The notes under the pieces are model-generated. The model ran no database searches, was not told the DNA's origin, and worked only from the letters and a program-made list of their open reading frames with translations. Positions 7,381 through 32,564 of a DNA stretch of 33,848 bases are shown here, piece after piece; the first letter of the stretch is position 1; every line of letters starts with the position of its first letter. The position numbers were made by a program, and so were the translations under genes. Source of the stretch: Candidatus Competibacteraceae bacterium (GTDB lineage: Bacteria; Pseudomonadota; Gammaproteobacteria; Competibacterales; Competibacteraceae); assembly GCA_036796235.1 (NCBI GenBank), contig DAIRDI010000001.1, forward strand, positions 1 through 33,848, written 5' to 3'.

Positions 7381-7456
<76 letters not shown>

Positions 7457-12707: not shown

Positions 12708-14231
12708 ATGATGACTCTCGATCTTCCCGGTTTTGTGCTGACCTTTCTGGCGGTGATGGCCGCGTTGTTCGTCTTCGCCGTCGGCGTCGGCGTTCTGCTG
12801 CTCGCCGTCCTCTACGTGGTCGACATCACGCAAACCCAGCACGCCATCCGCCGCAACTTTCCGGTCATCGGGCGGCTGCGCTACCGGATGGAGCATCTGG
12901 GCGTGTTTTTCCGTCAGTATTTTTACGCCATGGATCGGGAGGAGATGCCGTTCAATCGGGCGCAACGGGCCTGGGTCTACCGGGCGGCGAAAAATCTGGA
13001 CACCACCCAGCCGTTCGGCTCCACCCGCGACCTGCGGCCGCCGGGCACTATTCTGTTCGCCAACGCCGCGTTTCCGACCCTCGACACCGAGCCGGCCGCC
13101 GCCGCGCCGTTGGTGATTGGTCCGGATTGTCCCCAGCCCTATGCGGCGCCCAGCTTTTTCAACGTCTCCGCCATGAGTTACGGGGCCATTTCCAAACCGG
13201 CGGTCCTGGCCTTGGCGAACGGCGCGCGGCTGGCCGGGTGCTGGATGAATACCGGGGAAGGCGGCCTGTCGCCTTATCATCTGGAAGGCGGCGCCGACCT
13301 GGTCTTTCAGATCGGGACCGCGAAATACGGCGTGTGCGACGGCCAGGGTGGCCTGGATGCGGCGAAGTTGCGTGCGGTGGCCGCCCATCCTCAAGTGCGG
13401 ATGTTCGAAATCAAGCTCAGCCAAGGGGCCAAGCCCGGCAAAGGTGGCATCCTGCCAGCGGCCAAGGTCACGCCGGAAATCGCCGCGATTCGCGGCATCC
13501 CGGTCGGCCAGGATTCCCGCAGCCCCAACCGGCATCCCGACATCGCCGATGTGGCGGCCTTGTTGGACTTCGTCGCCCGAGTCCGGAATCTGACCGGCAA
13601 ACCCACCGGTTTCAAGCTGGTCATCGGCGATCCGGATTGGCTCGACGAGTTGTGCCAAGAGATCAAACGCCGAGTTCCGGCCAGCGCACCCGACTTCATC
13701 ACGGTGGACAGCGCCGACGGCGGCACCGGCGCGGCCCCGATGAGCTTGCTCGACTACGTGGGACTGCCGATCCAGGAGAGCCTGCCGCTGGTGGTGGACA
13801 AACTCAGCGAGTACGGCTTGCGCGAGCGCGTCCGGGTGATCGCCTCCGGGAAACTAATCAATCCTGGCGAGGTGGCCTGGGCACTGTGCGTGGGCGCCGA
13901 TTTCGTCAACTCGGCGCGGGGTTTCCTGTTCGCGCTCGGCTGCGTGCAGTCCATGCAATGCGACAAGAACACCTGCCCGGCCGGCATCACCACCCACAAT
14001 CCTCGCCTGCAACGAGGTCTGGACCCGACGGACAAGGTCGAGCGGGTGCGGCATTATGTGGAAAATCTGCGGCGAGAGGTGGAGAGCATCGCCCACTCCT
14101 GCGGCGCGGCGGACCCCCGGCAACTTCGGCGCGGGCACTGTCGGATCGTGACCGGTCCCGGCCGCTCAGCGTCGCTGGATGCTCTTTATCAACGGGTTCC
14201 GGCGCCGGTTCGCCAGATGGATGCGGCTTGA
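12708..14231 (+). CDS. FMN-binding glutamate synthase-family protein (stand-alone GltS FMN domain with an N-terminal TM)
   Basis: KLSQGAKPGKGGILP and VDSADGGTGAAP match the GltB FMN-domain signatures. There is an N-terminal hydrophobic helix. The ATG at 12708 has GGAGG 6 nt upstream. Confidence 0.9.
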   Translation: MMTLDLPGFVLTFLAVMAALFVFAVGVGVLLLAVLYVVDITQTQHAIRRNFPVIGRLRYRMEHLGVFFRQYFYAMDREEMPFNRAQRAWVYRAAKNLDTTQPFGSTRDLRPPGTILFANAAFPTLDTEPAAAAPLVIGPDCPQPYAAPSFFNVSAMSYGAISKPAVLALANGARLAGCWMNTGEGGLSPYHLEGGADLVFQIGTAKYGVCDGQGGLDAAKLRAVAAHPQVRMFEIKLSQGAKPGKGGILPAAKVTPEIAAIRGIPVGQDSRSPNRHPDIADVAALLDFVARVRNLTGKPTGFKLVIGDPDWLDELCQEIKRRVPASAPDFITVDSADGGTGAAPMSLLDYVGLPIQESLPLVVDKLSEYGLRERVRVIASGKLINPGEVAWALCVGADFVNSARGFLFALGCVQSMQCDKNTCPAGITTHNPRLQRGLDPTDKVERVRHYVENLRREVESIAHSCGAADPRQLRRGHCRIVTGPGRSASLDALYQRVPAPVRQMDAA

Positions 14232-14300
14232 TGGCCGCGCCCCGGTTTTAGGTCCACGCAATCGCTTCACCTTCAGCCATCAATCTCTGGCAGGTATTCC

Positions 14301-15002
14301 ATGGCAACATGGCGTAGGGTATGGGTAGTAGGGTTGTGGTCGATCGTTTTGTCGGCCCAGGCGGATCTACTGGTAGGCTTGGCGGCCTTGGCCAAAGGCG
14401 ACTATCCGACCGCGCTGGCTGAATGGCGACCGCTGGCCGAGCAGGGTGAAGCGGAAGCGCAGTTTAACGTGGGCGTGCTCTACGACGACGGGTTGGGGGT
14501 CGAACGGGATCGGGCGGTCGCCGCCGATTGGTATCGGCGGGCCGCCGAGCAGGGACACGCCAGGGCACAGTTCAATCTGGCCGTGCTGTACGCCAATGGT
14601 CTGGGCGTCGAGCAGAGTTACGCGCAAGCCTTGCGCTGGTACCGGCGAGCCGCCGAACAGGGGCTGAGTGAAGCGCAGTTCAACTTGGCCGTTTTGTACG
14701 AGAATGGCCTCGGCGCAATCCGGGACTATACCGAAGCGGCCTATTGGTTGCGCCGCGCCGCCGAACGAGGGCATGCGGCCGCGCAGAACAACCTTGGGGT
14801 GCTGTACGCCAACGGTCAAGGCGTTGCCCGCGATCCGGTGCTCGCCTATGTCTGGTACAGCATTGCAGCGGTGGGCGATAACGCCAAAGCCCGCTTCAAC
14901 CGCGACCAGATCGTCCAGGAGCTGGACCCGGAGCAGCTCGCGGAAGGCCGGCGACTCACCGTCGAATACGTCAAACGTTATTTGCCCTCCTCATCACCCT
15001 GA
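14301..15002 (+). CDS. Secreted Sel1-repeat (TPR-like) protein
   Basis: 233 aa. Signal-peptide-like N-terminus (WVVGLWSIVLSAQA). Four consecutive 36-aa repeats of the form AQFNLAVLYxNGLGVxxDxxxAxxWYRRAAEQG. Confidence 0.9.
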   Translation: MATWRRVWVVGLWSIVLSAQADLLVGLAALAKGDYPTALAEWRPLAEQGEAEAQFNVGVLYDDGLGVERDRAVAADWYRRAAEQGHARAQFNLAVLYANGLGVEQSYAQALRWYRRAAEQGLSEAQFNLAVLYENGLGAIRDYTEAAYWLRRAAERGHAAAQNNLGVLYANGQGVARDPVLAYVWYSIAAVGDNAKARFNRDQIVQELDPEQLAEGRRLTVEYVKRYLPSSSP

Positions 15003-15054
15003 ACGTATGCCACCCAAGCCGGCATTCTTCCCGATTTGCAGCCGCCTCCACGCC

Positions 15055-16077
15055 ATGATTCACTATCCCCTGCAAGCGCGCGCTTATTGGCTGGCGGCTC
15101 CCGGACGGGGCGAAATCCGCGACGGACGGCTGGCCGCGCCCGGTCCGGATCAGGTTCTGGTCAGAACGCTCTATACCGGCATCAGCCGCGGCACCGAAAG
15201 TCTGGTGTTTCGCGGCGAGGTGCCGCCCAGTCAGTATCACGCCATGCGCGCGCCGTTCCAGCAGGGTGACTTTCCCGCGCCGGTCAAATACGGTTACTGC
15301 AATGTTGGGGTCGTCGAGGTCGGTCCAGACGCGCTGCGCGGCCAAACGGTCTTCTGTCTGTATCCGCATCAGGACCGCTATGTGGCGCCGGCGACCGCGG
15401 TGACCCCGGTGCCGTTATCGATTCCGCCCGGACGGGCGGTGCTGGCCGCCAATCTGGAAACCGCGCTCAACGTGCTGTGGGACGCCGCGCCCCGGCTGGG
15501 CGACCGAATCACGGTAATCGGCGCCGGCGCGGTGGGTTGCCTGATCGCCCGGTTGGCCGGGCGGATGCCGGGGTGCGCGGTGCAACTGGTGGACATAGAC
15601 CCGCGCAAGGCCGCGCTCGCCGCGCACCTGGGGGTCCGCTTCGCCACTCCGGAGGAGGCGGAGGGAGGTCAGGATCGAGTCGTTCACGCCAGCGGCGCGC
15701 CCGCTGGCCTGGCGACCGCCCTGGCATTGGCTGGTTTCGAGGCTACCGTGGTGGAAGCCAGTTGGTTCGGCGCCCGCCCGGTCAGCCTGCCGCTGGGCGA
15801 AGCCTTCCACGCCAACCGGCTGCGGATTCACAGTTCCCAGGTCGGCGCCGTGGCCACCGCCCAGCGCGGGCGCTGGGACCATCGGCGGCGCATGGCCACC
15901 GTGATGCAGCTCCTGGACGATCCGGCGCTGGATGCGCTGATCGGCGGCGACCGCCCGTTCGCCGAATTGCCGCGAGTCATGGCCGACCTGAGCCGGAATC
16001 CCGATGTCGTACCCTGCCATCGCATTGTCTATGCTGATAGCAGGTTGAACCCAGCCCTCTCGAATTCCCTCACCTAA
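15055..16077 (+). CDS. MDR-superfamily dehydrogenase, BchC-like subgroup (catalytic Zn ligands apparently absent)
   Basis: 340 aa from MIHYPL. Has the Rossmann motif [15 protein letters not shown]. The N-terminal GroES-like part reads [14 protein letters not shown]...[10 protein letters not shown], where classical Zn-ADHs have C-G-T-D and G-H-E. The track ORF start at 14668 is an out-of-frame overlap with the Sel1 gene. Confidence 0.8.
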
Positions 16078-16090
16078 GGTCAAGCCATCC

Positions 16091-16492
16091 ATGTACACCG
16101 TCTGCGTCCGCGACCATTTCATGATCGCCCACAGCTTTCAGGGAGCAACCTTCGGTCCCGCCCAGCGCCTGCACGGCGCGACCTATGTCGTCGATCTGGA
16201 ACTGCGCCGTCCCGAACTCGACCCCGATGGGGTGGTGGTGGATATCGGCAAGGCCAGCGTGTGCCTGCGGGCGGTGCTGGACGAACTGAATTTCCGCAAT
16301 CTCGATGAACTGCCGGAATTCGCCGGCCGCAACACCACCACCGAGTTTTTGGCGCAGGCGATTTTCAACCGCCTCGCGCTGCGGATCGAGGACGGCCAAC
16401 TCGGGTTGCACGCCACGGGCCTGAGCGCCATGCGCGTCACCCTGCATGAATCGCACGTCGCCTGGGCCGCCTACGAAAGCGTGCTGCCGTGA
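16091..16492 (+). CDS. 6-pyruvoyl-tetrahydropterin synthase / QueD-fold (COG0720-like) protein, non-canonical active site
   Basis: 133 aa. FMIAHSF...[13 protein letters not shown]...VVVDIG...NTTTEFLA...TLHES align by eye to QueD/PTPS (FEAAHRL...CGRLHGHSF...IDF...PTSEVLA...ETC). Confidence 0.8.
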
Positions 16493-17538
16493 CAGCGGTC
16501 CAGATCCTGATCCCCGGCGATCCGGAAACCCGCACCGGTGGTTATTTATATGATCGGCGGATCATGGGCGGATTGACAGCGCTGGGCTGGCGGGTCGAGT
16601 TGCATCGGCTCAGCGCCCATTTTCCGCATCCGGACCCCGCCGCGCTACGCGAGGCCGACGCGGTGCTGGCCGGATTGCCGGACCAAGCGTTGGCGGTCAT
16701 CGACGGCCTGGCCCTGGGCGCCATGCCCGAGGTCGCCGCCGCGCATCGGGATCGACTGCGGCTGGTGGCGTTGGTACACCATCCCCTGGCGCTGGAGACG
16801 GGGTTGGACGAGGCGGCGCGTCGGCGCTTGTTCGCCAGCGAGCGCGAGGCGCTCCGGCAAGTCCGGGGCGTCATCGTCACCAGCCCCAGCACGGCGCGGG
16901 CGTTGGCGGCTTACGATATTTCTCCGGAGCGCTGCGCCGTGGTTCCGCCCGGCGCCGATCCCGCGCCCCTGGCCGAAGGTTCGCGCGATGGAACGCTGAC
17001 ACTGCTGTGCGTGGCGGCGCTGACCCCGCGCAAGGGGCACGACCTGTTGTTCCGAGCGCTGGCGCGCCTCGCCGGGCAGGCTTGGCGGCTGCGCTGCGCC
17101 GGCAGCGCGGCTCTCGACCCCGCCACCGCCGCCGCGTTGCGGGAACTGGTGGTGGAATTGGGTGTGGCCGACCGCATCGAATTTTTGGGCGAACTCGATG
17201 AGGAGGCCTTGGCCCAGCAATATCGGCGGGCGGACCTGTTCGTCCTGCCCTCCTATTACGAGGGTTATGGCATGGCCTTGGCCGAAGCGCTGGCCCATGG
17301 CCTGCCTGTGGTCAGCACCACGGCGGGGGCGATTCCCGATACCGTGCCGGCGACCGCCGGACTGCTGGTCCCGCCGGGCGACGAAGCGGCCCTGACCGAG
17401 GCGCTGGCACGGCTGATGACTGAACCGGCATTGCGCGAATCCCTGGCGAGCGGCGCCCGCGCGGCCCGGCGAACCCTGCCGGACTGGTCGGACAGTTGCG
17501 CCCGGTTCGCGGCGGCGCTCGATGCGCTGGCGGCCTGA
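16489..17538 (+). CDS. Glycosyltransferase family 4 (GT-B, group 1)
   Basis: 349 aa. [24 protein letters not shown] carries the E-x7-E motif. The GTG start overlaps the PTPS-like stop (GTGA). Confidence 0.9.
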
Positions 17539-18407
17539 TGAGCGGTTTTTCGGCGGAGTGGCTGCGCGAGCGCGAACCGGCGGACACCGCCGCGCGCAAC
17601 CCCGAACTGACCGCCCGTGCGCGCGACTGGCGCCGGCGGCGCGGCGCCCTGACCGTCCTGGATTTGGGGAGCGGAACCGGCGCCAATGTCCGGTTCCTGG
17701 CGCGGCGTCTCGGCGGCGCGCAGCGTTGGCTGCTGGTCGATCACGATCCGGAGTTGCTGGCGCGCGGCGTCGAGGAAATACGCGAGTGGGCCACGACGCG
17801 GGGGATGACGGCGACTGATGAAGGTGCGGCGCTGGTGCTGGAAGATGCGAGTTGCCATTGCCGGCTGGAGCCGGTGCGGCTGGACTTGGCTGGTGACTGG
17901 AAGCAGTTGGAGGTTCGCGAGGTCCATCTGGTCACGGCCTCGGCCCTGCTCGATCTGGTGGGAGCGGCTTGGCTGGAGCGGCTGGCCCAGCAGGGTCGAG
18001 CCTGGCGAGCGGCGATGTTCGTCGCCCTGAGTTACGACGGCTCCATCGTCTGGGAGCCGGCTTTGGCGGGCGACGAGACGTTGCGCGAACGGGTCAACCG
18101 CCATCAACGCACCGACAAGGGCTTCGGGCCAGCGCTCGGTCCCGCCGCCGCCGCCACGCTGGCGGCTCTGTTGCAAGATCGAGGCTATCAGGTCGAGTTG
18201 CGGCCCAGCCCCTGGCGGTTGGGACCGGAACACACCGTGCTGCAGACGGCGCTGCTGGAAGGCTGGAGCGAAGCCGCGCGCGAGATCGAACCGGCGGTGG
18301 ATGATCTCACCGAATGGACGGGCCAACGTCGGCGCTGCATCAATCGGGGCGAATCCCGGTTGCGGGTCGGACACTGGGATTTGTTCGCCTGCCCGGACGA
18401 CGACTGA
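17538..18407 (+). CDS. Class I SAM-dependent methyltransferase
   Basis: 289 aa from MSGFSAEWL. Motif I reads VLDLGSGTGANVRFLA. The ATG overlaps the GT4 stop by 1 nt (TGATG). Confidence 0.8.
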   Translation: MSGFSAEWLREREPADTAARNPELTARARDWRRRRGALTVLDLGSGTGANVRFLARRLGGAQRWLLVDHDPELLARGVEEIREWATTRGMTATDEGAALVLEDASCHCRLEPVRLDLAGDWKQLEVREVHLVTASALLDLVGAAWLERLAQQGRAWRAAMFVALSYDGSIVWEPALAGDETLRERVNRHQRTDKGFGPALGPAAAATLAALLQDRGYQVELRPSPWRLGPEHTVLQTALLEGWSEAAREIEPAVDDLTEWTGQRRRCINRGESRLRVGHWDLFACPDDD

Positions 18408-18425
18408 ACCGAGTCCGGTTCAGTC
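18402..18425. terminator. Perfect 10-bp palindromic hairpin between convergent genes, containing both stop codons
   Basis: GACTGAACCG-agtc-CGGTTCAGTC. The TGA of the methyltransferase gene (18405-18407) and the TCA (TGA on the minus strand, 18420-18422) of the RibD_C gene lie in opposite arms. There is no U-tract on either side. Confidence 0.4.
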
Positions 18426-19346
18426 CCGGAACCGACAATCGAAGAGCACGTCCTCGCCCAGCAAGTAACGGCGATGGTGGGGCCGCAGCCCCTGGGACAG
18501 GTCCTGAATGGGGGGTAGCGTGACGCCCGGCCGGCCGGAGCCGATAATCAACGGCGCCACCGTCAGTTGCAGGCGATCCAGTACGCCCTCTTCCAAAAAG
18601 GCCGATACCGTCTGGCCGCCGCCTTCGATGAAGATCCCATATAAACCAAGGCCGTGCAGCCGCCGCAGGATCTCCCGCGGGTTCAGCCGCCCGTTTTCGC
18701 TGGGGATTCCAAGAATCTCCACGCCGCCCGGCGCGGGCGTTACGGCCCGTTCCGCGGCGCAGACCAGCAGGGTGGGCGCGGCGCGATCCTGGAATACCCC
18801 ATGGTCGGCGACGAGCCGGCGCTGGGGATCGATGATGACCCGCACTGGATTCGGACCCGCGACCCGCCGGGTGGTCAACCGGGGATCGTCGCACTCCACC
18901 GTGGCGGCGCCGACCACAATCGCATCGCATAACGCGCGCATTCGGTGCAAGTGGGTCAGGTTTTCAGGACCGGTCACGAAACAGGAGGCCCCGTTTTCGG
19001 TGGCGATGCGCCCGTCCAGGCTCTGGCCGAGATGCGCCACCGCCAACGGCCGCTCCGGGCTGGCCAGCGCCATCGATAGATACAGATCCAGCCACTCCTC
19101 ACCCGGTTTCGCCACTGGCGTCCTGGCGCTCCACGAGCCAGCGCCGGCGATCTCCAGCAAAGCAGCCGGGTCGTCGGCCGGGATCACGACCGGCCGCCCC
19201 TGCTCGTCCAGTCCCAGGCCGAGCGGCGCGGGCGCGGTCATCAGGGACCGGACGTGCTGGCGCAGCGCCAGCAGCAGCGCCCAAACCAGCTCCGGTTGGA
19301 TCACGGCGGGGGCGTTAGGGAACGAGGTAGAGTCGGCGGTGGTCAT
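18420..19346 (-). CDS. RibD C-terminal domain (DHFR-like) reductase with an N-terminal extension of about 95 aa
   Basis: 308 aa. Has GQSLDGRIA, LHRMRALCDAIVVGAATV..DDP.L and FIEGGGQTVSAFLEEGVLDRLQLTVAPLIIG. The ATG overlaps the FkbM stop (ATGA). Confidence 0.85.
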   Translation of the reverse strand: MTTADSTSFPNAPAVIQPELVWALLLALRQHVRSLMTAPAPLGLGLDEQGRPVVIPADDPAALLEIAGAGSWSARTPVAKPGEEWLDLYLSMALASPERPLAVAHLGQSLDGRIATENGASCFVTGPENLTHLHRMRALCDAIVVGAATVECDDPRLTTRRVAGPNPVRVIIDPQRRLVADHGVFQDRAAPTLLVCAAERAVTPAPGGVEILGIPSENGRLNPREILRRLHGLGLYGIFIEGGGQTVSAFLEEGVLDRLQLTVAPLIIGSGRPGVTLPPIQDLSQGLRPHHRRYLLGEDVLFDCRFRD

Positions 19347-20101
19347 GGCGCGCGCCGCCGGGCATATACATCACCGGAGCGGCCGGTCCCGGCCTGGGTT
19401 TCCAGCCACGCCAGCAGGGCCTCGGCGTCCAGCCAGACCGCCGACCGCAGTCGGGGCGCTTCCCCAACCGTGACGTTGAATTCGTAGCGCTCGAGCGTCC
19501 CCAGATACGTCACGCAGGCCCGGGCGGTTTCCAGGCAGGCGGGAATGTATTCAAAGGACAGCGCCGGGATCGGTTGCGTCAGCCCCCTCAGCACGTCCAG
19601 TTCGTAACCCTCCACATCGATCTTGCAGAAAGCGGGCAATCCATGGCGGGCGATGAGCGCATCCAGGGTGGTGACCGGCACCGGCACGGCGTAGTCCCAA
19701 CGCACGTCGGCGAAAGCGCGATCCTGTTGGACCGCCGCGATCCAGTCCGGCGAAAGGGTGGTCACGGTCGGGGTGCGCGGGCTGACCCACAGTTCGGCGA
19801 CCCCCGGCGCGGCCCCGACCGCTTGCTCGACCAAGGTGATATGCGGGTGGCGGCCATACCAGCGACGCAACAGGCGCAGGCATTCTGGTTGCGGTTCCAC
19901 CGCCACGATGCGCGCGCCCAGTGGAGTCCAGGCCCGCAACCGGCTCCCGACGTGGGCGCCGATATCGAAACAAAGATCACCCGGCTGGATGAATTGGGCG
20001 TAGAAGCGGCTCAACCGACGCCGGCGCAGCGGGATGCCGTGATACATCAGCACCGAGCGCCAGAGTCCGAGTTGATGCGCCAGGCGGGTCCACATCGTCA
20101 T
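19343..20101 (-). CDS. FkbM-family methyltransferase
   Basis: CFDIGAHVGS and FCKIDVEGYELDVLRG are FkbM hallmarks. The start is uncertain: ATG at 20101 or 20095, while the track uses TTG at 20134. There is no clear SD. Confidence 0.85.
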   Translation of the reverse strand: MTMWTRLAHQLGLWRSVLMYHGIPLRRRRLSRFYAQFIQPGDLCFDIGAHVGSRLRAWTPLGARIVAVEPQPECLRLLRRWYGRHPHITLVEQAVGAAPGVAELWVSPRTPTVTTLSPDWIAAVQQDRAFADVRWDYAVPVPVTTLDALIARHGLPAFCKIDVEGYELDVLRGLTQPIPALSFEYIPACLETARACVTYLGTLERYEFNVTVGEAPRLRSAVWLDAEALLAWLETQAGTGRSGDVYARRRAP

Positions 20102-20201
20102 GGCTGCGCTAATCCGGTGATTCCACCGAATCAACCCAACCTGTCGTGATAGTCTTTACCATGGATTCATCTGCCTTACCGGTCGCGGGAGAGAGAAGAC
20201 G

Positions 20202-20594
20202 ATGGCCAGTATTCCACTGCTTGCATTTGTGGTGATCGCCTATACGGTGCTGGCGTCGATCGCGCCGGTCTGGTTGGAGGGCGTGTTGTTCGTGCTGCCG
20301 TTATTGTCCGGGGCGACGCTGCCCTTTCGGGGTAATGACTTGTTGCTGGTGATCAGCCTGTTTTTGCTGTGTATCGAAGTCTACCGCGCCACCAGCAGTT
20401 CGACCGCCGCCATCCTCAATCATGTACTGTCGCTGGTGGTGTTCATCGTCTGTCTGGTCGAGTTCCTCGTCCTGCCGCCCATGGCCAACATGACCTTTTT
20501 CCTGATCATGGCGATGACCTTGATCGATGTGGTCGCCGGTTTCACCGTAACCATCTCGACCGCCCGGCGAGACATACAGGATCAACGGTCATGA
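20202..20594 (+). CDS. Small polytopic membrane protein, unknown function
   Basis: 130 aa with 4-5 hydrophobic helices. GGGAGAGAG SD-like sequence upstream. GC content is visibly lower than in the neighbours. I recognise no family. Confidence 0.6.
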   Translation: MASIPLLAFVVIAYTVLASIAPVWLEGVLFVLPLLSGATLPFRGNDLLLVISLFLLCIEVYRATSSSTAAILNHVLSLVVFIVCLVEFLVLPPMANMTFFLIMAMTLIDVVAGFTVTISTARRDIQDQRS

Positions 20595-20605
20595 TGGGGG
20601 ATCGG

Positions 20606-20640
20606 ACGCCGGCAGGTTTCTCCGGCGTTTCGCTCTGTTG
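20606..20640 (+). terminator. Candidate intrinsic terminator after the small membrane protein gene
   Basis: Stem ACGCCGG / CCGGCGT (7 bp) with a 9-nt loop, followed by a T-containing tail (TTCGCTCTGTT). The U-tract is weak. Confidence 0.35.
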
Positions 20641-20763
20641 GGAGGCGGTCTCGATTTGCCAGCGTTTGAGGCCAGCCGACCTGGCTACGGTCGTCACGGC
20701 GGCCGATAAATCGCGCGAAACGAAACAGCGGGATCGGCCGGCGCCGGAGTGGCCATCCGGCCT

Positions 20764-21855
20764 CTAAGCGTCGTTATTCCCCAGCACGACTTGCCGGCGT
20801 TGCCTGGCGAAGTCCAGCAAGCGCCGGATCGGTAGCGCCGCCCGCTCGCGCACCGTCTCGGCGATGACGATCTCGTTGCGACCGGTCTCCAGAACCCGCG
20901 CCAGATTGCGCAGGCCGTTCATCGCCATCCACGGACAGTGGGCGCAACTGACGCAGGTCGCGCCCTTGCCGGCGATGGGCGCTTCCAAGAAGATTTTATC
21001 CGGGGCCACCTGCTTCATTTTGTGAAACAAGCCGTTGTCGGTGGCGACGATAAACTTTTTCGCCCGCGAATCACGCGCCGCATCGACCAGCGCCGTGGTC
21101 GAACCCACCACATCGGCTTGGGCGATCACGTCCAGCGGAGATTCCGGATGGACCAGCACCTTGGCGTCGGGATGTCGGGCGCGCAGCTTTCGCAATCCAT
21201 CCGCCTTGAACGCTTCATGCACCACGCAGGCGGCGCTCCACAGCAGCATGTCCACCCCAGTTTCCCGCTGCACGTAAGCGCCCAAGTGTCGGTCCGGCGC
21301 CCAGATCAGCTTCTCGCCGCGTTGGGCTAAATGGCGCACGAGATCCAGGGCGATGCCCGAGGTGACCACCCAGTCGGAACGAGCTTTCACCGCCGCGCTG
21401 GTGTTGGCGTAGACCACCACGGTCCGGTCGGGATGCCGGTCGCAGAAAGCGCTGAACTCGTCGGCCGGGCACCCCAGATCGAGCGAGCATTCGGCATTGA
21501 GATCGGGCATCAGCACGCGTTTTTCAGGATTGAGGATCTTGGCGGTTTCGCCCATGAACCGCACCCCGGCCACCACCAGCGTCCTGGATCGGCATTCCGT
21601 GCCGAAGCGGGCCATGTCCAGCGAATCCGAAACATAACCGCCGGTGGCCTCGGCCAGCTCTTGTAATTCAGGCGAGGTGTAGTAGTGCGCGACCAACGTG
21701 GCGTCCTGCTCGACCAGCAGCCGCTTGATGCGCTCGACCAACCGGGCTGTTTCGGCGGCGTCCAGCGTCTCGACCACGGTGCGCGGCACGTGCATCGGCG
21801 CCAGGCGGCGATCCCTCATGACCGGGTTGGATACGACGGATAAGAGTGCGCTCAT
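20764..21855 (-). CDS. nadA: Quinolinate synthase NadA
   Basis: 363 aa from MSALLS (GGAGA SD). Has [47 protein letters not shown] and the Fe-S Cys region [10 protein letters not shown]. Confidence 0.93.
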
Positions 21856-24004: not shown

Positions 24005-24640
24005 TCAGGTCGATAGCGAAGCATCGTCCGCGCGGCCCAATCGCGCTAGTTTTTCCTTGGTGCGCTTTAATTGCTCGATGGCTAGTTCCAGTTCATCATC
24101 GAAAGGGTTCCGCTCTTCCCGGTCGGCGTGACGCCGCAGTTCCGCCAGCTTGCGGCGCGTCATCTCCAGCTCCTTGACCGCCAGGACCAATTCATCGGTG
24201 GTTTTTCGCAGCCGTTCGGCGACGATCCGGCCGATGGCTCGATACAGCAACGCCTGGCAAGCATTGCGTTCCGATGGCGGCAGCTTTTGTAAAAACCCGG
24301 GACTGAGTTCCAGGCACCAAGTGGTTTCCAGCGCGTACACCGACGCGGTGCGGGTTTCATTACCGAGCACGGAGAGTTCGCCGAACACTTCCCCGACCTG
24401 ATCCAGCACCGTGATCGGACTTCGGTTCTTGGTCACCCGTACCTTGCCGTTGAGCAGCACGTACAGACGGTCTCCGAAAGCGCCCTCGGGAATGATCAGT
24501 TCCTCGGGTTCGTAAACGAGCAGGCGGCTGACGCCCAGAATTTCCTTGAGAGGTTGCTCGCCGAACGCCTGTAGAAATGGAATCGATTTGAACCGTTCGA
24601 CCTGTTCGCCCAGAGCGGGACCGCTTTGGTGGATTTGCAT
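24005..24640 (-). CDS. Cyclic-nucleotide-binding (CAP_ED) domain protein with a C-terminal coiled coil and no DNA-binding domain
   Basis: 211 aa. FGELSVLGNETRTASVYA is the cNMP phosphate-binding cassette. The last 70 aa or so are heptad-like (ELEMTRRKLAELRR...ELELAIEQLKRTKEKLARL). Confidence 0.85.
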   Translation of the reverse strand: MQIHQSGPALGEQVERFKSIPFLQAFGEQPLKEILGVSRLLVYEPEELIIPEGAFGDRLYVLLNGKVRVTKNRSPITVLDQVGEVFGELSVLGNETRTASVYALETTWCLELSPGFLQKLPPSERNACQALLYRAIGRIVAERLRKTTDELVLAVKELEMTRRKLAELRRHADREERNPFDDELELAIEQLKRTKEKLARLGRADDASLST

Positions 24641-24698: not shown

Positions 24699-26333
24699 CT
24701 AGGCGGTATAACCCGGAATCTGGTCGACCTCCACGGCGTCGAGTTGCTCCGGTTGCAGGTATTGCCGGGCGTAGTTTAGCCAGATGCCCTCGCGAACGAA
24801 CACGTCGAAGAGGTCGGGGTCGATCTTTCGATCGATCGCCATCCGGCCGAGAATCGCCAGCACTTCGCTCAACGGCTTGCCGGGTTTATAAGGTCGGTCG
24901 CGAGCGGTCAGGGCTTCGAAGATATCGGCCAGACCGATGATGCGGGCCGGCATGGATAAAGTCCGCTCGTCCAAACCGCGGTGGTAGCCGCTGCCGTCGA
25001 GCTTTTCGTGATGGCTCCCGGCATATTCGGGTACGTTGCGCAGGTTTTTAAGCCAAGGCAAGGTATTCAGCATCCGCAGGGTCAAGGCGACGTGTTCCTC
25101 GATAATAGCGTGCTCCTGAGGATTGAGGGTGCCTCGGGCGATACACAGATTGCCGACTTCGTCCTCGGACAGGAAAGCGCATTCCCGGCCCTCCGATCCG
25201 ATCCAGCGGTAGCCGGCAATCTGGCGAACCCGATCCTGATCCTCGGGGCGCATGAATTCGCCGCCGATATTGCAGTGGCGCAGGTGTTCCCGATCGGCGT
25301 CCAGCCTGGCCAGCCGCTCGCGGAATCGCTGCTCCAAACCCGGTAACTCGGCGGTGTCGCCGCGCTCCACGGCCGCCAGTTGCGCTTGCAGCCATTCGAT
25401 CCGGGCATCGCGTTTGAGCACTTCAAAGCGGGTATCCACCAGTTCGATGCGATCGAACAGTGTCTCCAGCTTGGTGGCTTTGTCCACCACATGCACCGGT
25501 GTGGCGATTTTGCCGCAATCGTGCAACAGTCCAGCGATTTTGAGTTCGAAGAGTTCCTCGTCCGTGGGGCGAAAGTCTTTCAAACGCCCTCGCTCGGAGC
25601 GGCGGGCGGCCTCGGCGATCATCATGGTCAGAACGGGCACTCGCTGACAGTGAGCGCCCGTGTAGGGAGATTTATGGTCGATCGCGGTGTTGATCAGTTC
25701 GATCAGCGCTTCGAATAGATGCCGGAGCTGACCGATCAAGTGATGGTTGGTCAGAGCGATGGCCGCTTGGGAGGCCAAGGATTCCGCGAGTTGGCGGTCG
25801 GTCGTCGAAAAGGCGCGCACCGCTCCGGTCTCCGGGTCGAGCGCGTTGATGAGTTGGAACACCCCGATGATTTCGTCGTCGTGATTCTTCATCGGCACGG
25901 TCAGGAAGGAGCGGGAGTGGTAACCGGTTTTCCGGTCGAAGCGGTGCGTCCCGGAAAAGTCAAAGTTGGAGTCCGCGTAGGCGTCGTCGATCAGGACGGT
26001 CGTATCATGCAGCACCGCATAGGTCACCACCATGCCGGTATTGGGCTGACCGAGCGAGTCGTACAGTGGGATGGGCGCAAAAGGGATAGGCACGCCCGAC
26101 CCTCCACCCATGAACAACTGGAGCGAATCGTTGTGGAGAACCTCGAAACAGAGTTGATGACGATCCTCGTCCAGCCGATACAACGTACCGCCATCGGCAT
26201 TTAGCAAGCGCTTGGCCGCAAGCAGGATCATTTCCAGCAACTTCGGCGTATCCCGCTCTCTGGACAGGGCGATGCCGATCCGGTTGAGTTGCTCCAAACA
26301 CCGCAGGGGATCGTTGGAGTGGGATGGGGGCAT
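24699..26333 (-). CDS. GAF domain / HD-GYP-type phosphohydrolase
   Basis: 544 aa. N-terminal GAF-like region. The HD domain has LLHDCGKIATP, then an insert of about 100 aa, then SHHEKLDGSGYHRGL (GYP reads GYH) and GLADIFEALTARDRPYK. AAGGA SD lies 6 nt upstream. Confidence 0.9.
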   Translation of the reverse strand: MPPSHSNDPLRCLEQLNRIGIALSRERDTPKLLEMILLAAKRLLNADGGTLYRLDEDRHQLCFEVLHNDSLQLFMGGGSGVPIPFAPIPLYDSLGQPNTGMVVTYAVLHDTTVLIDDAYADSNFDFSGTHRFDRKTGYHSRSFLTVPMKNHDDEIIGVFQLINALDPETGAVRAFSTTDRQLAESLASQAAIALTNHHLIGQLRHLFEALIELINTAIDHKSPYTGAHCQRVPVLTMMIAEAARRSERGRLKDFRPTDEELFELKIAGLLHDCGKIATPVHVVDKATKLETLFDRIELVDTRFEVLKRDARIEWLQAQLAAVERGDTAELPGLEQRFRERLARLDADREHLRHCNIGGEFMRPEDQDRVRQIAGYRWIGSEGRECAFLSEDEVGNLCIARGTLNPQEHAIIEEHVALTLRMLNTLPWLKNLRNVPEYAGSHHEKLDGSGYHRGLDERTLSMPARIIGLADIFEALTARDRPYKPGKPLSEVLAILGRMAIDRKIDPDLFDVFVREGIWLNYARQYLQPEQLDAVEVDQIPGYTA

Positions 26334-30271: not shown

Positions 30272-30342
30272 CATCAACCCCGACCTCCCTCCCACAGGGA
30301 GAGGGGAGTTTTCGTGCAACCTCTCAGATAAAGGAGCTTGTG

Positions 30343-32564
30343 ATGCCTCGTCCGCTTTGGCCTGGAAAACCGTTTCCACTCGGTGCCTCCTGGAATGGTA
30401 AGGGCGTCAATTTCGCTCTGTTTGCGGAAAACGCCACGGGGGTCGAACTTTGCCTCTTCGACGCCGACGATCATGAAACCCGGTTGGAACTCACGGAAGT
30501 TAATAAATGCATCTGGCATGGCTATGTCCCGGAGCTCGGACCCGGCCAGCGTTACGGCTTTCGGGTCCACGTTCCCTTCGCACCTCAGGAGGGCCACTGC
30601 TTCAATCCTCACAAACTGCTCATCGACCCCTACGCCAAGGCCATCGACGGCGACATACGCTTCGGTGAGGAAATTTTCGGCTCCCCTGGGAGCAGCCGGA
30701 TGAGGATCTGGGGTTCTCGGAGCTCGACAGCGCGCCGCTGATGCCCAAGGCGGTGGTCATCGACCCGCGCTTCGCCTGGGAAGGCGACGAACTGTTGCGC
30801 GCCCCCTGGCACGAAACGCTGATCTACGAAACGCACGTCAAGGGCTTTACTGTCCGACATCCGGAGATCCCGGAAGAGCAGCGTGGGACTTACGCCGATC
30901 TCGCCCACCCGGCCGCTATCGCCCATCTCCAGGCGCTCGGCGTGACCGCCGTCGAACTGATACCAGTCCATTATTACCTGGCCTTTCCGGGTCATCTGGC
31001 GGGCTTGGGTTTGCGCAACTACTGGGGCTACGATTCACTGAACTTTTTCGCCCCGCATCCCGGCTACAGCGTCAGTGACGGACCCGATCAGGCGGTGCGC
31101 GAATTCAAGACCATGGTCAAGACCCTGCACCGGGCCGGCATCGAAGTCATCCTGGATGTGGTCTACAACCACACCGGCGAAGGCAACCAGATGGGGCCGA
31201 CCCTAAGCCTGCGCGGCGCGGACAACGCCGTCTATTACCGGGTGGTCGAGGATGACCCGCGCCATTACATGGATTTCACCGGTTGCGGCAACTCGCTCAA
31301 CGTCCGCCACCCGCAGGTCCTCAAGCTGATCATGGACAGCCTGCGCTACTGGGTGCAGGAGATGCACGTGGACGGCTTCCGCTTCGACCTGGCCTCGGCG
31401 CTGGCGCGGGAACTGTACGCGGTCGACCGGCTGGCGGCGTTTTTCGACATCATCCATCAGGACCCGGTCCTGTCCGACGTGAAGCTGATCGCCGAACCCT
31501 GGGACGTCGGCGATGGCGGCTATCAGGTCGGCGGATTCCCGCTGCTCTGGTCGGAATGGAACGGGCGCTATCGCGACACGGTGCGCGATTTCTGGCGCGG
31601 CGAGCCGAGCCGGCTGGCCGATTTCGCCTTCCGCCTCACCGGCAGTTCCGATCTCTACCAGTTCGGCGGGCGCAGTCCCAGCGCCAGCATCAACTTCATC
31701 ACCGCCCACGACGGCTTCACCCTGCGCGATCTGGTCAGTTACAACGACAAGCACAACGAAGCCAACGGTGAGGACAACCGCGACGGCGAATCGCACAACC
31801 GCTCGTGGAACTGCGGGGTCGAGGGCGAGACCGACGACCCGGAGATTCTGAGCCTGCGCCTGCGCCAGCAGCGCAATTTCCTAACCACCCTGCTGCTGTC
31901 GAAGGGCGTGCCCATGCTGTTGGCCGGCGATGAAATGGGCCGCACACAGGGCGGCAACAACAACACGTATTGTCAGGATAGCGAACTGTCCTGGATCGAT
32001 TGGGAACTACCCGAGAAAAACTCGGAACTCCTGAAATTCGCTGGCGAACTGGTGGCGTTCCGTCGCGCGCATCCGGTGCTGCGGCGCCGTAAGTGGTTCG
32101 AAGGCCGGTCGATCCACGGTTCCGGCGCGCATGACATTATCTGGTTCAATCCGGACGGCGGCGAGATGACCGAGGAACAATGGCAAGACGGTCTGGCGCG
32201 GGTGATCGGCGTCTTCTTCAACGGCGAGGAAATCGCCACCCTCGGCCCGCGCGGCGAACGGATCATCGACGACAGTTTTATCCTGTTGTTCAACGCTCAT
32301 CACGAGCCGCTGGAATTCGCGCTCCCCGAGTCGGTGCGGGATGGCGCCTGGCGTCTGATCATCGACACCACGCAACCCGGCTTCGTCGACCGCGATCCCT
32401 ATCCCGCGCCCGCGCCCGCGCCGGCGAAGGCCGCGCCAAAGTCCCGGAAGAAGACCGTCGCGCCCCCACCCGCCCCCACGGGACCGACGGTGGCGGAACG
32501 GTCCATCGTGGTCTTGCAACGGCCCCGAAACGCGAAGACTGGGTTGGCGGACTGGCCGAAATGA
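30343..32564 (+). pseudogene. glgX: Glycogen debranching enzyme GlgX, split by a 1-nt frame disruption near 30683-30688 (true pseudogene or homopolymer sequencing error)
   Basis: The N-terminal piece ([23 protein letters not shown]) is in frame 1 and stops at 30741. The rest ([44 protein letters not shown]) is in the -1 frame. Reading ...EEIFGSP then [26 protein letters not shown] across the CCCC run restores a continuous GlgX of about 740 aa. AAGGAG lies 6 nt upstream of the ATG at 30343. Confidence 0.9.

Follow-up and report, generated by a model that had tools for sequence, protein, structure and literature searches.

A six-gene cluster in a Candidatus Competibacteraceae bacterium as a trimmed copy of a widespread, biochemically uncharacterised PTPS-IV cluster

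The six genes described here lie in a window of 33,848 nt (the whole stretch of DNA that was analysed) from a Candidatus Competibacteraceae bacterium, and are a trimmed copy of a widespread, biochemically uncharacterised PTPS-IV cluster. We give about an even chance to the reading that the cluster builds and decorates a small GTP-derived compound by way of the riboflavin-type branch instead of the GTP cyclohydrolase I/PTPS one, with a phospholipid head group as the probable product in most lineages. The PTPS-IV family itself has already been noticed (PMC5445326, PMC5041015), with a published neighbourhood of PF00925 and PF01872 (PMC5445326). The original prediction had found no characterised pathway with this gene set, and the cluster product is indeed uncharacterised.

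Organisation and distribution of the cluster

Analysis with Pfam, NCBIfam and direct reading of the sequence gave the same six coupled open reading frames, domains and junctions as had originally been described. On the plus strand the MDR dehydrogenase gene is separated from the PTPS-like gene by 13 nt as read from the sequence, the PTPS-like and GT4 genes overlap by GTGA, and the GT4 and class I methyltransferase genes overlap by TGATG. The stop codons of the methyltransferase gene (plus strand) and the RibD_C gene (minus strand) are convergent and 12 nt apart, and the FkbM and RibD_C genes share an ATGA overlap. Public gene calls on identical contigs independently gave the same six products of 340, 133, 349, 289, 308 and 252 aa. 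A short palindrome read from the sequence, GAACCG-agtc-CGGTTC (18405..18422, no strand assigned), covers both convergent stop codons; its shortness and the lack of a T-run kept it out of the terminator scan's output. The original prediction had noted that the cluster is free of GTP cyclohydrolase. None, GTP cyclohydrolase II included, was found in the whole window, and genes for a creatininase, a CDP-alcohol phosphatidyltransferase or a sulfatase-family protein were likewise absent. A search for a riboswitch or other regulatory clue found none.

At least 596 matches to the PTPS-like protein were confirmed among species-representative genomes; hosts among the matches listed were Gamma-, Beta- and Alphaproteobacteria, Myxococcota, Acidobacteriota, Gemmatimonadota and Actinomycetota. 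Neighbours were counted in 52 well-flanked loci, which carried the MDR (51 loci), GT4 (50), methyltransferase (45), RibD_C (45) and FkbM (16) genes. A CDP-alcohol phosphatidyltransferase was found in 43 of the 52, a sulfatase-family (LtaS/EptA-like) membrane transferase in 31, and the GTP-related neighbours (PF00925 and PF02633) in fewer: GTP cyclohydrolase II in 20, and creatininase in 13, always alongside GTP cyclohydrolase II. GTP cyclohydrolase I and sepiapterin reductase were never among the co-occurring genes of the loci examined. The neighbour-conservation check thus upheld the proposal of one syntenic functional cluster, and since both order and orientation recur across phyla the six-gene arrangement is far beyond chance. 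The same core, with a phosphatidyltransferase and a creatininase, was present on a Haloarcula plasmid with a PTPS-like protein 33% identical, and some Competibacteraceae loci kept PTPS-GT4-MT alone. PNPOx or F420-dependent split-barrel proteins adjoin the cluster in Streptomyces, Haloarcula and Hydrogenophaga.

Predicted functions of the encoded proteins

The first gene (15055..16077, plus strand) encodes a zinc-less MDR-superfamily dehydrogenase of 340 aa, distantly BchC- or polyol-dehydrogenase-like, with a weak ADH_zinc_N match and 51 bits to TIGR01202 (bchC) against a cut-off of 291. The motifs GISRGTE and KYGYCNVG stand where canonical zinc ligands are expected and are invariant in 62 orthologues, and a GAGAVG nucleotide-binding motif is present. 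Foldseek searches with its AlphaFold model (pLDDT 83) reached TM values of about 0.7 for polyol, hydroxy-acid and alcohol dehydrogenases of the MDR type, structural neighbours that are generic. In 49/52 well-flanked loci this gene immediately precedes the PTPS-like one.

The second gene (16091..16492, plus strand) encodes a T-fold protein of 133 aa of the PTPS-IV subfamily (PF01242, 88.7 bits) that belongs to a family with more than 60% identity across phyla. It is 61% identical to SCO6650 of S. coelicolor (PDB 3D7J), to which the family profile aligned with E = 1e-54, and it contains the FGPAQ signature of PTPS-IV. At the position of Cx3HGH in QueD, a motif whose roles have been described (PMC9894224), it has AQRLHGA, and the catalytic Cys and second zinc-binding His are replaced throughout the family; a T-T-E motif, which falls on the substrate-anchoring part of QueD in the alignment, is kept. 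By sequence this protein is an SCO6650 orthologue, a zinc-less look-alike without the catalytic Cys and second His, and not a catalytic PTPS or QueD. Spoonamore et al. (2008) reportedly found neither zinc nor PTPS activity in SCO6650.

The RibD_C-family reductase (18420..19346, minus strand, 308 aa) scored 127 bits to RibD_C, 134.8 to TIGR00227 and 93 bits to the archaeal rib_reduct model. It has no deaminase domain, and its extra N-terminal stretch of about 95 aa is poorly conserved. Its best solved relative was 6P8C, a 2,5-diamino-6-ribosylamino-4(3H)-pyrimidinone 5'-phosphate reductase (107 bits); 2AZN and RibD proteins came next, and Rv2671 reached only 42 bits. The protein had earlier been called DHFR-like; this was rejected in favour of the archaeal-type diaminopyrimidine ribosyl reductases and RibD, and it is predicted to reduce a ribosylamino- to a ribitylamino-pyrimidine. 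The gene was found in 43-45 of the 52 loci, where it mostly runs towards the operon in convergent orientation, and was missing in about 13% of well-flanked loci and in the haloarchaeal locus. With respect to the GTP-related neighbours in other loci, the GTP cyclohydrolase II proteins keep the Tyr of the canonical enzymes, and the creatininase matched ArfB weakly (18 bits) versus 118 bits for MftE.

The GT4 (GT-B) glycosyltransferase (16489..17538, plus strand, 349 aa) matched Glyco_trans_1_4 and Glycos_transf_1 (E = 1e-33) and was in the same position in 46/52 well-flanked loci. Its best solved relatives were sucrose-phosphate synthase 6KIH (95 bits), MshA 7QSG (90 bits) and PimB, and weak matches to EPS and LPS glycosyltransferase models were also obtained. 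The pteridine glycosyltransferases that have been characterised resemble GT4 enzymes too (PMC5683033). Similarity to one of these, CtPGT of Chlorobium, came to 36 bits over 95 residues in the generic sugar-nucleotide region only, and a pterin glycosyltransferase, the role this enzyme had been taken to have, was rejected for want of specific similarity.

The class I SAM-dependent methyltransferase (17538..18407, plus strand, 289 aa) fell just below the Methyltransf_25 cut-off (26.6 against 27 bits). It has the motif I VLDLGSGTG, and its AlphaFold model (pLDDT 92) adopted a class I methyltransferase fold with generic Foldseek matches (TM 0.45-0.62) to small-molecule, phospho-base and lipid methyltransferases; the gene was present in 44-45 of the 52 well-flanked loci. 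The FkbM-family methyltransferase (19343..20134, minus strand; 263 aa from TTG 20134 or 252 aa from ATG 20101, the form in public gene calls) scored 56.8 bits to Methyltransf_21 and 89 bits, over cut-off, to TIGR01444. It is the least constant cluster member, at variable positions in its 16/52 loci.

Candidate products of the cluster

In the scheme we favour, GTP cyclohydrolase II would produce 2,5-diamino-6-ribosylamino-4(3H)-pyrimidinone 5'-phosphate, supplied in this genome by its housekeeping version; a dedicated paralogue sits within the cluster in about 40% of other genomes. The RibD_C protein would then, by homology, reduce the ribosyl to a ribityl chain, and the zinc-less MDR might, tentatively, oxidise a secondary alcohol of this polyol chain. 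More speculatively, the zinc-less T-fold protein could bind the 2-amino-4-oxopyrimidine edge and catalyse a reaction other than that of PTPS, for example an isomerisation or a ring closure. Its resemblance to MshA, sucrose-phosphate synthase and PimB suggests that the GT4 enzyme would glycosylate a polyol-phosphate-type acceptor, and both methyltransferases would methylate the product. Every chemical step is a prediction from family resemblance. Reduction of the ribosyl group followed by re-oxidation of the chain is chemically uneconomical and counts against the scheme, which also leaves unexplained the statement that PTPS-IV acts in archaeal F420 synthesis (PMC5041015). As originally proposed, a GTP-derived heterocycle from a housekeeping precursor fits the evidence, but entry by a GTP cyclohydrolase I-type route does not, the co-occurring genes being GTP cyclohydrolase II and a creatininase-family gene. 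A GTP-derived origin may not be universal, because RibD_C is absent from some loci and some keep only PTPS-GT4-MT.

The phosphatidyltransferase and sulfatase-family neighbours were assigned to PF01066 and PF00884, and natural fusions of the two were found in five loci (L018, L027, L036, L042 and L077). In Thiodictyon the RibD and phosphatidyltransferase genes overlap, and in a close Competibacteraceae-like relative the phosphatidyltransferase gene is directly upstream of the MDR gene. A flippase-like protein (MprF-type domain) is sometimes present in related loci, and mdoH adjoins the cluster in Methylosinus. The phosphatidyltransferase scored far under every curated PgsA, PIPS, Pss and Cls model, and no cytidylyltransferase was found among the recurrent neighbours of related loci. 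Since a divergently transcribed phosphatidyltransferase gene, its protein often with or fused to an LtaS/EptA-like one and sometimes with a flippase-like one, occurs in most other lineages, the product there is probably a phospholipid head group or envelope decoration. The window has no phosphatidyltransferase or sulfatase-family gene, so the lipid link is extrapolated from relatives; with membrane genes locally absent, the product here may be soluble, or completed by unlinked genes.

The original prediction had taken PTPS beside a glycosyltransferase as the logic of a pterin glycoside pathway. In its classical form PTPS would act on dihydroneopterin triphosphate from housekeeping GTP cyclohydrolase I, the RibD_C protein would be a DHFR-like pterin reductase, the GT4 enzyme a pteridine glycosyltransferase, and the methyltransferases would decorate pterin or sugar. 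Methylated pterin glycosides such as cyanopterin exist, the GT4 gene directly follows the PF01242 gene with translational coupling, the T-T-E motif is retained in alignment with the anchoring region of QueD, and known pteridine glycosyltransferases are of the GT4 type (PMC5683033). We nevertheless consider this very unlikely: the T-fold protein is a PTPS-IV member whose family has lost the catalytic Cys and second His, SCO6650 reportedly lacks zinc and PTPS activity, the match to CtPGT is short and low, the reductase favours diaminopyrimidine ribosyl reductase over Rv2671 by 107 to 42 bits, and it is GTP cyclohydrolase II and creatininase that co-occur, never GTP cyclohydrolase I or sepiapterin reductase.

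Supply of an archaeal-style flavin or deazaflavin precursor (5-amino-6-ribitylaminouracil, leading to riboflavin or F420) or of a cofactor derivative, with PTPS-IV catalysing a step still missing from the route and the GT4 enzyme and methyltransferases modifying the cofactor, is also unlikely in our judgement. Unpublished work is cited as placing PTPS-IV in archaeal F420 synthesis (PMC5041015), and GTP cyclohydrolase II, a creatininase of ArfB's family, the archaeal-type reductase and the split-barrel proteins of the three genera named above are all neighbours. Against this, the loci examined contained neither a lumazine, riboflavin or FO synthase nor cofC/D/E, the constant partners (MDR, GT4, methyltransferase, phosphatidyltransferase) are not part of any known flavin or F420 pathway, the creatininase is closer to MftE than to ArfB, and many host genera are not known to use F420. 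Tailoring of an envelope glycan or lipid that has no GTP-derived moiety seems similarly improbable. Here a polysaccharide, LPS, periplasmic glucan or glycolipid would be modified by the GT4, methyltransferase and MDR enzymes, with the T-fold and RibD_C proteins acting on sugar-like substrates or as accessories. The GT4, FkbM and SAM methyltransferases are typical of such systems, and the GT4 enzyme has weak EPS/LPS matches; the phosphatidyltransferase, LtaS/EptA-like transferase and flippase-like protein are all envelope enzymes, and mdoH is the neighbour in Methylosinus. However, no substrates but those of purine, pterin or pyrimidine type are known for the families of the T-fold and RibD_C proteins, the dedicated GTP cyclohydrolase II of 20/52 loci has no role in glycan synthesis, and Wzx/Wzy, polyprenyl-phosphate transferase and sugar-nucleotide synthesis genes are not recurrent nearby.

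Comparison with known systems

BchC (3-hydroxyethyl bacteriochlorophyllide a dehydrogenase) is the best curated match of the window MDR. Both have an MDR fold without classical zinc ligands, and some pipelines name homologues BchC, but 51 bits is under the 291-bit cut-off, photosynthesis genes are lacking around the cluster, and most hosts among the matches listed are non-phototrophs. Cyanobacteria and green sulfur bacteria have pterin glycoside pathways that combine PTPS-II with a pteridine glycosyltransferase (such as BGluT or CtPGT). These pathways share with the window a COG0720 fold beside a GT-B/GT4 enzyme and a plausible GTP-derived heterocycle, whereas the window's COG0720 member lacks the catalytic residues, its similarity to CtPGT is generic, its reductase is RibD-type, and a GTP cyclohydrolase I/sepiapterin reductase context is missing.

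Among phospholipid head-group systems, PI/PIM synthesis uses PIP synthase with PimA (GT4), and PG or PE is the donor for LtaS, OpgB and EptA of the sulfatase family. Related loci likewise group a phosphatidyltransferase, an MshA/PimB-like GT4, a sulfatase-family transferase and sometimes an MprF-type flippase-like domain; none of these membrane enzymes is in the window, and known phospholipid pathways contain nothing equivalent to the cluster's head-group genes (T-fold, RibD_C, MDR). The early archaeal and fungal riboflavin route runs through GTP cyclohydrolase, the formamide hydrolase ArfB (creatininase family) and 2,5-diamino-6-ribosylamino-pyrimidinone 5'-phosphate reductase. The window's stand-alone RibD_C protein best matches such reductases (6P8C, 2AZN), and both GTP cyclohydrolase II and an enzyme of the creatininase family occur in related loci. 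The cluster differs in that downstream riboflavin or F420 genes are absent from it, the creatininase is not ArfB-like by score, the neighbouring GTP cyclohydrolase II proteins have the canonical Tyr, and the reductase carries the extra N-terminal extension of about 95 aa.

SCO6650 (COG0720, PTPS-IV) with its SCO6648-6655-type neighbourhood belongs to the same cluster family as the window genes. Fuller PTPS-IV clusters have CDP-alcohol phosphatidyltransferase, sulfatase-family, GTP cyclohydrolase II, creatininase and flippase-like genes that the window does not, while the window couples to RibD_C an FkbM methyltransferase carried by only about 30% of PTPS-IV loci. Shared with SCO6650 are the 61% identity, FGPAQ, the loss of the Cx3HGH Cys and one His, and a RibD_C neighbour, and the MDR-PTPS-GT4-MT order is identical in Streptomyces, Thiodictyon and Methylosinus records.

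Organization of the cluster and its flanks

The six genes were confirmed by listing and translating the ORFs and by profile searches. An MDR-superfamily dehydrogenase (15055-16077), a PF01242 (PTPS-fold) protein (16091-16492), a GT4 glycosyltransferase (16489-17538) and a class I SAM methyltransferase (17538-18407) are encoded on the plus strand, and a RibD_C protein (18420-19346) and an FkbM methyltransferase (19343-20101 or 20134) on the minus strand. The predicted junctions were also found, namely the 13-nt gap, the GTGA and TGATG overlaps, the 12-nt spacer separating the convergent stops and the ATGA overlap, and the six genes are coupled in an operon-like manner. Public gene calls on identical contigs agree on all six products. 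Near-identical proteins carry names that assign the window to Candidatus Competibacteraceae. A perfect 6-bp palindrome (GAACCG/CGGTTC, 4-nt loop) at 18405-18422 spans the convergent stops of both genes, that of the methyltransferase and that of RibD_C; lacking a T-run, it was not called by the terminator scan. Promoter and terminator scanning of 14200-20800 returned sites no more numerous than in shuffled sequence, and an Rfam scan of the window and of five diverse related loci for a riboswitch or RNA leader identified tRNA only. The single RNA gene found in the window, tRNA-Ala (CGC) at 7381-7456 on the plus strand, is approximately 7.6 kb from the cluster and has no mobile-element genes near it. 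With respect to base composition, the cluster (15001-20000) has a G+C content of 0.66-0.71 compared with 0.59-0.66 in the adjoining 1-kb bins on both sides, a difference that may be due to acquisition or to nothing more than dense coding.

The products of the flanking genes include FBPase, a GGDEF-EAL regulator, an AmpD-like amidase, NMO, RraA, an OmpA-domain protein, a nitroreductase, a YiiD thioesterase, a glutamate-synthase-like FMN protein, a Sel1-repeat protein, NadA, a cNMP-binding protein, a GAF/HD protein and glycogen enzymes. As these are unrelated to the cluster, we regard it as a self-contained island. The Sel1-repeat gene (14301-15002) and a 130-aa membrane ORF (20202-20594) were considered as further members and rejected, since neither recurs in related loci. 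Nucleotide second-messenger genes are present on both sides, with a response-regulator GGDEF-EAL gene at 1548-4028, a cNMP-binding gene at 24008-24640 and a GAF and HD (HD_5) gene at 24702-26333, none of which is a recurrent neighbour of the cluster elsewhere. Further downstream a GlgX-type debranching enzyme appears to be split between a 133-aa N-terminal ORF (30340-30738, plus strand) and a 607-aa alpha-amylase-domain ORF (30741-32561, plus strand), which lie in different frames with a one-base overlap (TGATG) while the protein sequence runs on from one to the other; a frameshift, pseudogene formation or an error of assembly accounts for the split.

Conservation and recurrent partners

One genome per species was searched by a pattern scan, with an alignment of the PTPS-like protein as seed, and at least 596 relatives were confirmed. 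The best 80 of these share 61-81% identity and come from Gamma-, Beta- and Alphaproteobacteria, Myxococcota, Bdellovibrio, Acidobacteriota, Gemmatimonadota and Actinomycetota. The six window proteins were compared by tblastn with these 80 loci, 52 of which had enough flanking DNA for synteny to be counted. Among the 52, the MDR gene was found in 50-51 (directly upstream in 49), GT4 in 46-50 (always directly downstream), the class I methyltransferase in 44-45 and RibD_C in 43-45 (convergent in 36), while FkbM was found in 16 at variable positions. The full six-gene set was present in 12 of these loci and five of the six genes in 34. Because gene order recurs in this way, the main ground on which the original prediction of a single cluster could have been dismissed, that the genes are not syntenic elsewhere, falls away, and chance juxtaposition of the six genes is excluded by the same counts.

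The PTPS-like family itself is compact and highly conserved: when 1.84 billion representative proteins were scanned, 126 clusters at 50% identity were found with E <= 1e-30. Apparent Rosetta-stone fusions of PTPS with GT4, or of MDR with PTPS, were set aside, as most of those among the database representatives have truncated domains and resemble frameshift artefacts; only one such protein, P0237 (501 aa), appears full-length. Several other database proteins carry three tandem PTPS-IV-like domains (P0121, 488 aa; P0124, 855 aa; P0125, 375 aa; P0128; P0137; P0140, 824 aa), a covalent pseudo-trimer of the T-fold, with about 450 extra residues lacking a Pfam match in some.

De novo clustering of ORFs from the best 80 loci revealed additional partners, and the cluster is recurrently associated with GTP cyclohydrolase II, a creatininase-family enzyme and two membrane enzymes. 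The first membrane enzyme, a CDP-alcohol phosphatidyltransferase (PF01066, motif DGx2ARx8Gx3Dx3D), occurs in 43 of the 52 loci counted for synteny, as a rule in divergent orientation to the MDR gene. The second, a membrane protein of about 550 aa from the sulfatase family (PF00884) to which LtaS, EptA and OpgB belong, is present in 31 of the 52. In at least five loci (L036:5529-7739, L042, L027, L077 and L018) the two are fused and divergent from the MDR-PTPS-GT4-methyltransferase operon, an arrangement that may couple synthesis of a donor lipid to transfer of its head group; no such fusion is present in the window. GTP cyclohydrolase II was found in 20 of the 52 loci, often with an N-terminal extension of about 190 aa, and the creatininase-family enzyme in 13, always together with GTP cyclohydrolase II. 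An MprF-type flippase-like membrane domain was found in six, mainly actinobacterial. At the position of E. coli Tyr105, the cluster GTP cyclohydrolase II has Tyr in 19 of the 20 loci examined and His in one. The FAPy-forming enzyme of S. coelicolor reportedly has Met in place of this Tyr, and the FAPy-forming type was rejected as a general description of the associated paralogues, given that 19 of 20 keep Tyr.

Annotated records of individual genomes are in line with these assignments. On Thiodictyon pTs417 the MDR-PTPS-GT4-methyltransferase genes are followed by RibD overlapping the phosphatidyltransferase gene, and in Streptomyces fungicidicus the phosphatidyltransferase is divergent from these four genes, followed by creatininase and ribA. 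A distant version on a Haloarcula plasmid, with a PTPS-like protein of 33% identity, has MDR-PTPS-GT4, a hypothetical gene at the methyltransferase position, phosphatidyltransferase and creatininase. In Methylosinus trichosporium OB3b (plasmid pOB3b1) the five-gene core adjoins the glucan synthase gene mdoH (L087:6079-7881), which is divergent from the MDR gene and occupies the position usually held by the phosphatidyltransferase in other genomes; its placement may hint at periplasmic glucans as acceptor of the head group or may be coincidental. Split-barrel flavin/deazaflavin-binding proteins (PPOX class F420-dependent, PNPOx family and FMN_bind_2) adjoin the cluster in Streptomyces, Haloarcula and Hydrogenophaga (L089:15420-15866, L088:282-734 and L081:10322-10978), and may be related to an unpublished F420 remark on PTPS-IV.

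None of the additional partners is encoded in the window. The phosphatidyltransferase and the sulfatase-family protein had no tblastn match there, and the Sel1-repeat gene stands at the phosphatidyltransferase position. The absence of a GTP cyclohydrolase, predicted for the cluster, extends to the window as a whole, in which neither type was found. A Competibacteraceae-like relative has the phosphatidyltransferase directly upstream of MDR and other relatives have PTPS-GT4-methyltransferase only; the window is therefore a reduced variant from a variable lineage.

Assignment of the individual enzymes

The PTPS-like protein has a PF01242 T-fold domain (88.7 bits, residues 4-129). Its family profile matched SCO6650 of S. 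coelicolor (PDB 3D7J), to which the window protein is 61% identical, over the full length with E = 1e-54, and genuine QueD/PTPS structures at 1e-7 to 1e-3 only. The FGPAQ sequence at residues 21-25 is named in two papers as the mark of PTPS-IV, a subfamily of COG0720 (PMC5445326), the published neighbourhood of which includes PF00925 and PF01872 (RibD_C); PF00925 is GTP cyclohydrolase II, mislabelled in that paper as FolE2. Of these neighbours the window has RibD_C, in convergent orientation, and lacks GTP cyclohydrolase II. By profile match and signature, the window PTPS-like protein belongs to the conserved PTPS-IV cluster.

Catalytic PTPS and QueD proteins carry Cx3HGH, Cx5HGH or ExxHGH motifs with a catalytic Cys or Glu (PMC5041015, PMC9894224), and in QueD zinc is bound by an N-terminal His and both His residues of Cx3HGH, the Cys being catalytic (PMC9894224). 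In the window protein and all 16 aligned homologues the QueD Cys position is occupied by an alanine (Ala24). His14 and His28 of the zinc site are kept, the third ligand is replaced by Ala30, invariant across the family, and the QueD LDHH motif aligns with LNF/YR. The PTPS/QueD catalytic residues are therefore lost, and a catalytic identity of the PTPS-I, -II or -III type within COG0720 was rejected on the basis of the replaced Cys and third zinc His. Neither GTP cyclohydrolase I nor queC/queE neighbours were found in the window, and none is recurrent in the best 80 of at least 596 loci. What is kept is a T-T-E motif aligning with T-S-E of QueD, a type of motif which we take to anchor the 2-amino-4-oxo edge of the substrate in PTPS and QueD structures. 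The product of GTP cyclohydrolase II bears the same edge. The SCO6650 crystal structure was reportedly described by Spoonamore et al. in Acta Cryst F in 2008 as lacking zinc, the catalytic triad and PTPS activity while keeping pterin-binding residues, and is said to have left the function unassigned.

The RibD_C protein scored 134.8 bits against TIGR00227, the riboflavin-specific reductase domain model (cut-off 150), and 93 bits against the archaeal reductase model TIGR01508. Its best solved relative is 6P8C, a 2,5-diamino-6-ribosylamino-4(3H)-pyrimidinone 5'-phosphate reductase (107 bits), followed by 2AZN (78 bits) and then by bacterial RibD proteins. No deaminase domain is present in the protein, whose N-terminal extension, about 95 aa long, is poorly conserved. 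Rv2671, which we take to be a RibD-family protein with DHFR activity, reached only 42 bits, and because the closest matches are riboflavin-pathway reductases the predicted description as "DHFR-like" is not the best one. By these profile and structure matches the enzyme is classed as a RibD-type reductase.

The MDR protein gave a model of pLDDT 83 which matched MDR enzymes in Foldseek with TM about 0.7 and E = 1e-19, its structural neighbours being polyol, hydroxy-acid and alcohol dehydrogenases of a generic kind. The Rossmann GxGxxG motif is present as GAGAVG. The zinc-ligand positions (Cys in GxCxxD, His in GHE), placed by linear sequence and known MDR motifs, hold GISRGTE and KYGYCNVG, invariant in 62 orthologues, and a zinc-dependent alcohol dehydrogenase was rejected on this account. 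BchC (TIGR01202) was the best curated match at 51 bits; this identity was likewise rejected, as the score is far below the cut-off of 291 and the window contains no bch or puf genes that would provide a photosynthesis context. Homologues are publicly named 2-desacetyl-2-hydroxyethyl bacteriochlorophyllide a dehydrogenase (BchC) or zinc-binding alcohol dehydrogenase, though they have no zinc ligands. PGAP names for the cluster are all generic, with the T-fold protein labelled "6-carboxytetrahydropterin synthase" and given a queuosine GO term, and the queuosine (QueD) annotation of its homologues is contradicted by the motif analysis. Public annotation of both the T-fold (QueD) and MDR (BchC) homologues is systematically wrong.

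The GT4 protein has Glyco_transf_4 N-terminal and Glycos_transf_1 C-terminal domains over their cut-offs (115.6, 117 and 46 bits) and is closest to sucrose-phosphate synthase (95 bits) and MshA (90 bits), and also to PimB, enzymes which glycosylate phosphatidylinositol or phosphorylated sugars or polyols. CtPGT, the characterised pteridine glycosyltransferase of Chlorobium (sequence from PMC5683033), matched by BLASTP at only 36 bits (29% identity over 95 aa) in a generic donor-binding segment, and a specific relationship to pteridine glycosyltransferases was rejected. The class I methyltransferase (model pLDDT 92) has a canonical fold, and its top Foldseek matches were all class I methyltransferases acting on small molecules, phospho-bases or lipids, again generic; it carries motif I (VLDLGSGTG), and its Pfam score of 26.6 bits is marginally under the cut-off of 27. 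For neither this protein nor the MDR protein did Foldseek pinpoint a substrate beyond confirming the fold. The FkbM assignment was well above the cut-offs for TIGR01444 (89.1 versus 37.7 bits) and PF05050 (56.8 versus 22.7 bits).

A proposed GTP-derived product and its relation to known clusters

The original prediction followed the logic of the classical pterin glycoside pathways. This we consider very unlikely, given the missing PTPS catalytic residues, a GT4 that does not specifically resemble pteridine glycosyltransferases, and a genomic setting of GTP cyclohydrolase II and RibD. A role in supplying a flavin or F420 precursor would agree with a published remark on PTPS-IV and with the adjoining split-barrel proteins; it is unlikely, since no downstream flavin or F420 genes are recurrent in the best 80 of at least 596 loci and it would give no account of the MDR, GT4, methyltransferase and phosphatidyltransferase genes that constantly accompany the cluster. 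Improbable too is a purely glycan-tailoring role, which fits GT4, FkbM and the membrane enzymes but offers no place for a dedicated GTP cyclohydrolase II, for RibD_C or for the T-fold protein.

The explanation which we prefer begins with GTP cyclohydrolase II, which would supply a diaminopyrimidine ribosyl phosphate. RibD_C would reduce its ribosyl group to ribityl, following the archaeal sequence of steps with no prior deamination, and the MDR enzyme would oxidise a secondary hydroxyl of the chain. The T-fold protein might then bind the aminopyrimidinone edge and carry out a zinc-independent catalytic step, GT4 would glycosylate a polyol-phosphate-like acceptor and both methyltransferases would finish the molecule. 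A chemically attractive possibility is that oxidation at C2' would let the chain close a ring onto the 5-amino group and so form a dihydropterin. An end product resembling a pterin is therefore compatible with this scheme, and the evidence speaks only against the PTPS route to it. We hold the family-level statements on the cluster to be highly probable and the stepwise chemistry to be tentative; for the explanation as a whole the chances seem evenly balanced.

With respect to the fate of this product, no cytidylyltransferase is recurrent near the cluster in the best 80 of at least 596 loci, so the phosphatidyltransferase most simply uses CDP-diacylglycerol, and the product would therefore be a lipid head group. 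Fusion to an LtaS/EptA-like domain points to a later transfer of the phospho-head group to an extracytoplasmic acceptor. Taken jointly, a hitherto undescribed glycosylated, methylated, GTP-derived alcohol (ribitylaminopyrimidine- or pterin-like) would be joined by the phosphatidyltransferase to CDP-diacylglycerol, or CDP-archaeol in haloarchaea, to form a phospholipid head group of a new class, and the flippase-like protein and LtaS/EptA-like transferase would expose the head group or hand it to envelope polymers, the window holding the head-group module alone. This joint reading is rather doubtful. If true, it would define a new class of polar lipid or envelope decoration and provide functions for several large orphan families.

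In the literature open to searching, the cluster is nowhere described as systematically linked to a phosphatidyltransferase and an LtaS/EptA-like protein, and this link is the most interesting lead. That literature yielded no functional study of SCO6650, of SCO6655, or of PTPS combined with phosphatidyltransferase or with GTP cyclohydrolase II and creatininase. Spoonamore et al. are said to have characterised, in Biochemistry in 2006, the FAPy-forming GTP cyclohydrolase II SCO6655, a paralogue which we take to belong to the PTPS-IV/SCO6650 cluster. The PTPS-IV subfamily and its neighbourhood were described in comparative-genomics papers of 2016-2017 (PMC5041015, PMC5445326). Together with the SCO6650 structure, this neighbourhood places the cluster family in the literature already as an unsolved case, an annotation problem of years' standing. 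The window is, more modestly, one further reduced member of that family, and its metagenome-derived copy is not the best system for solving the function. For the PTPS-IV/SCO6650 cluster in general, the "pterin-like" label is sharpened to a specific hypothesis by three results: its spread over hundreds of species from no fewer than seven bacterial phyla, plus a distant version in haloarchaea; a chemistry of the GTP cyclohydrolase II/RibD type; and its usual association with a phosphatidyltransferase and an LtaS/EptA-like enzyme.
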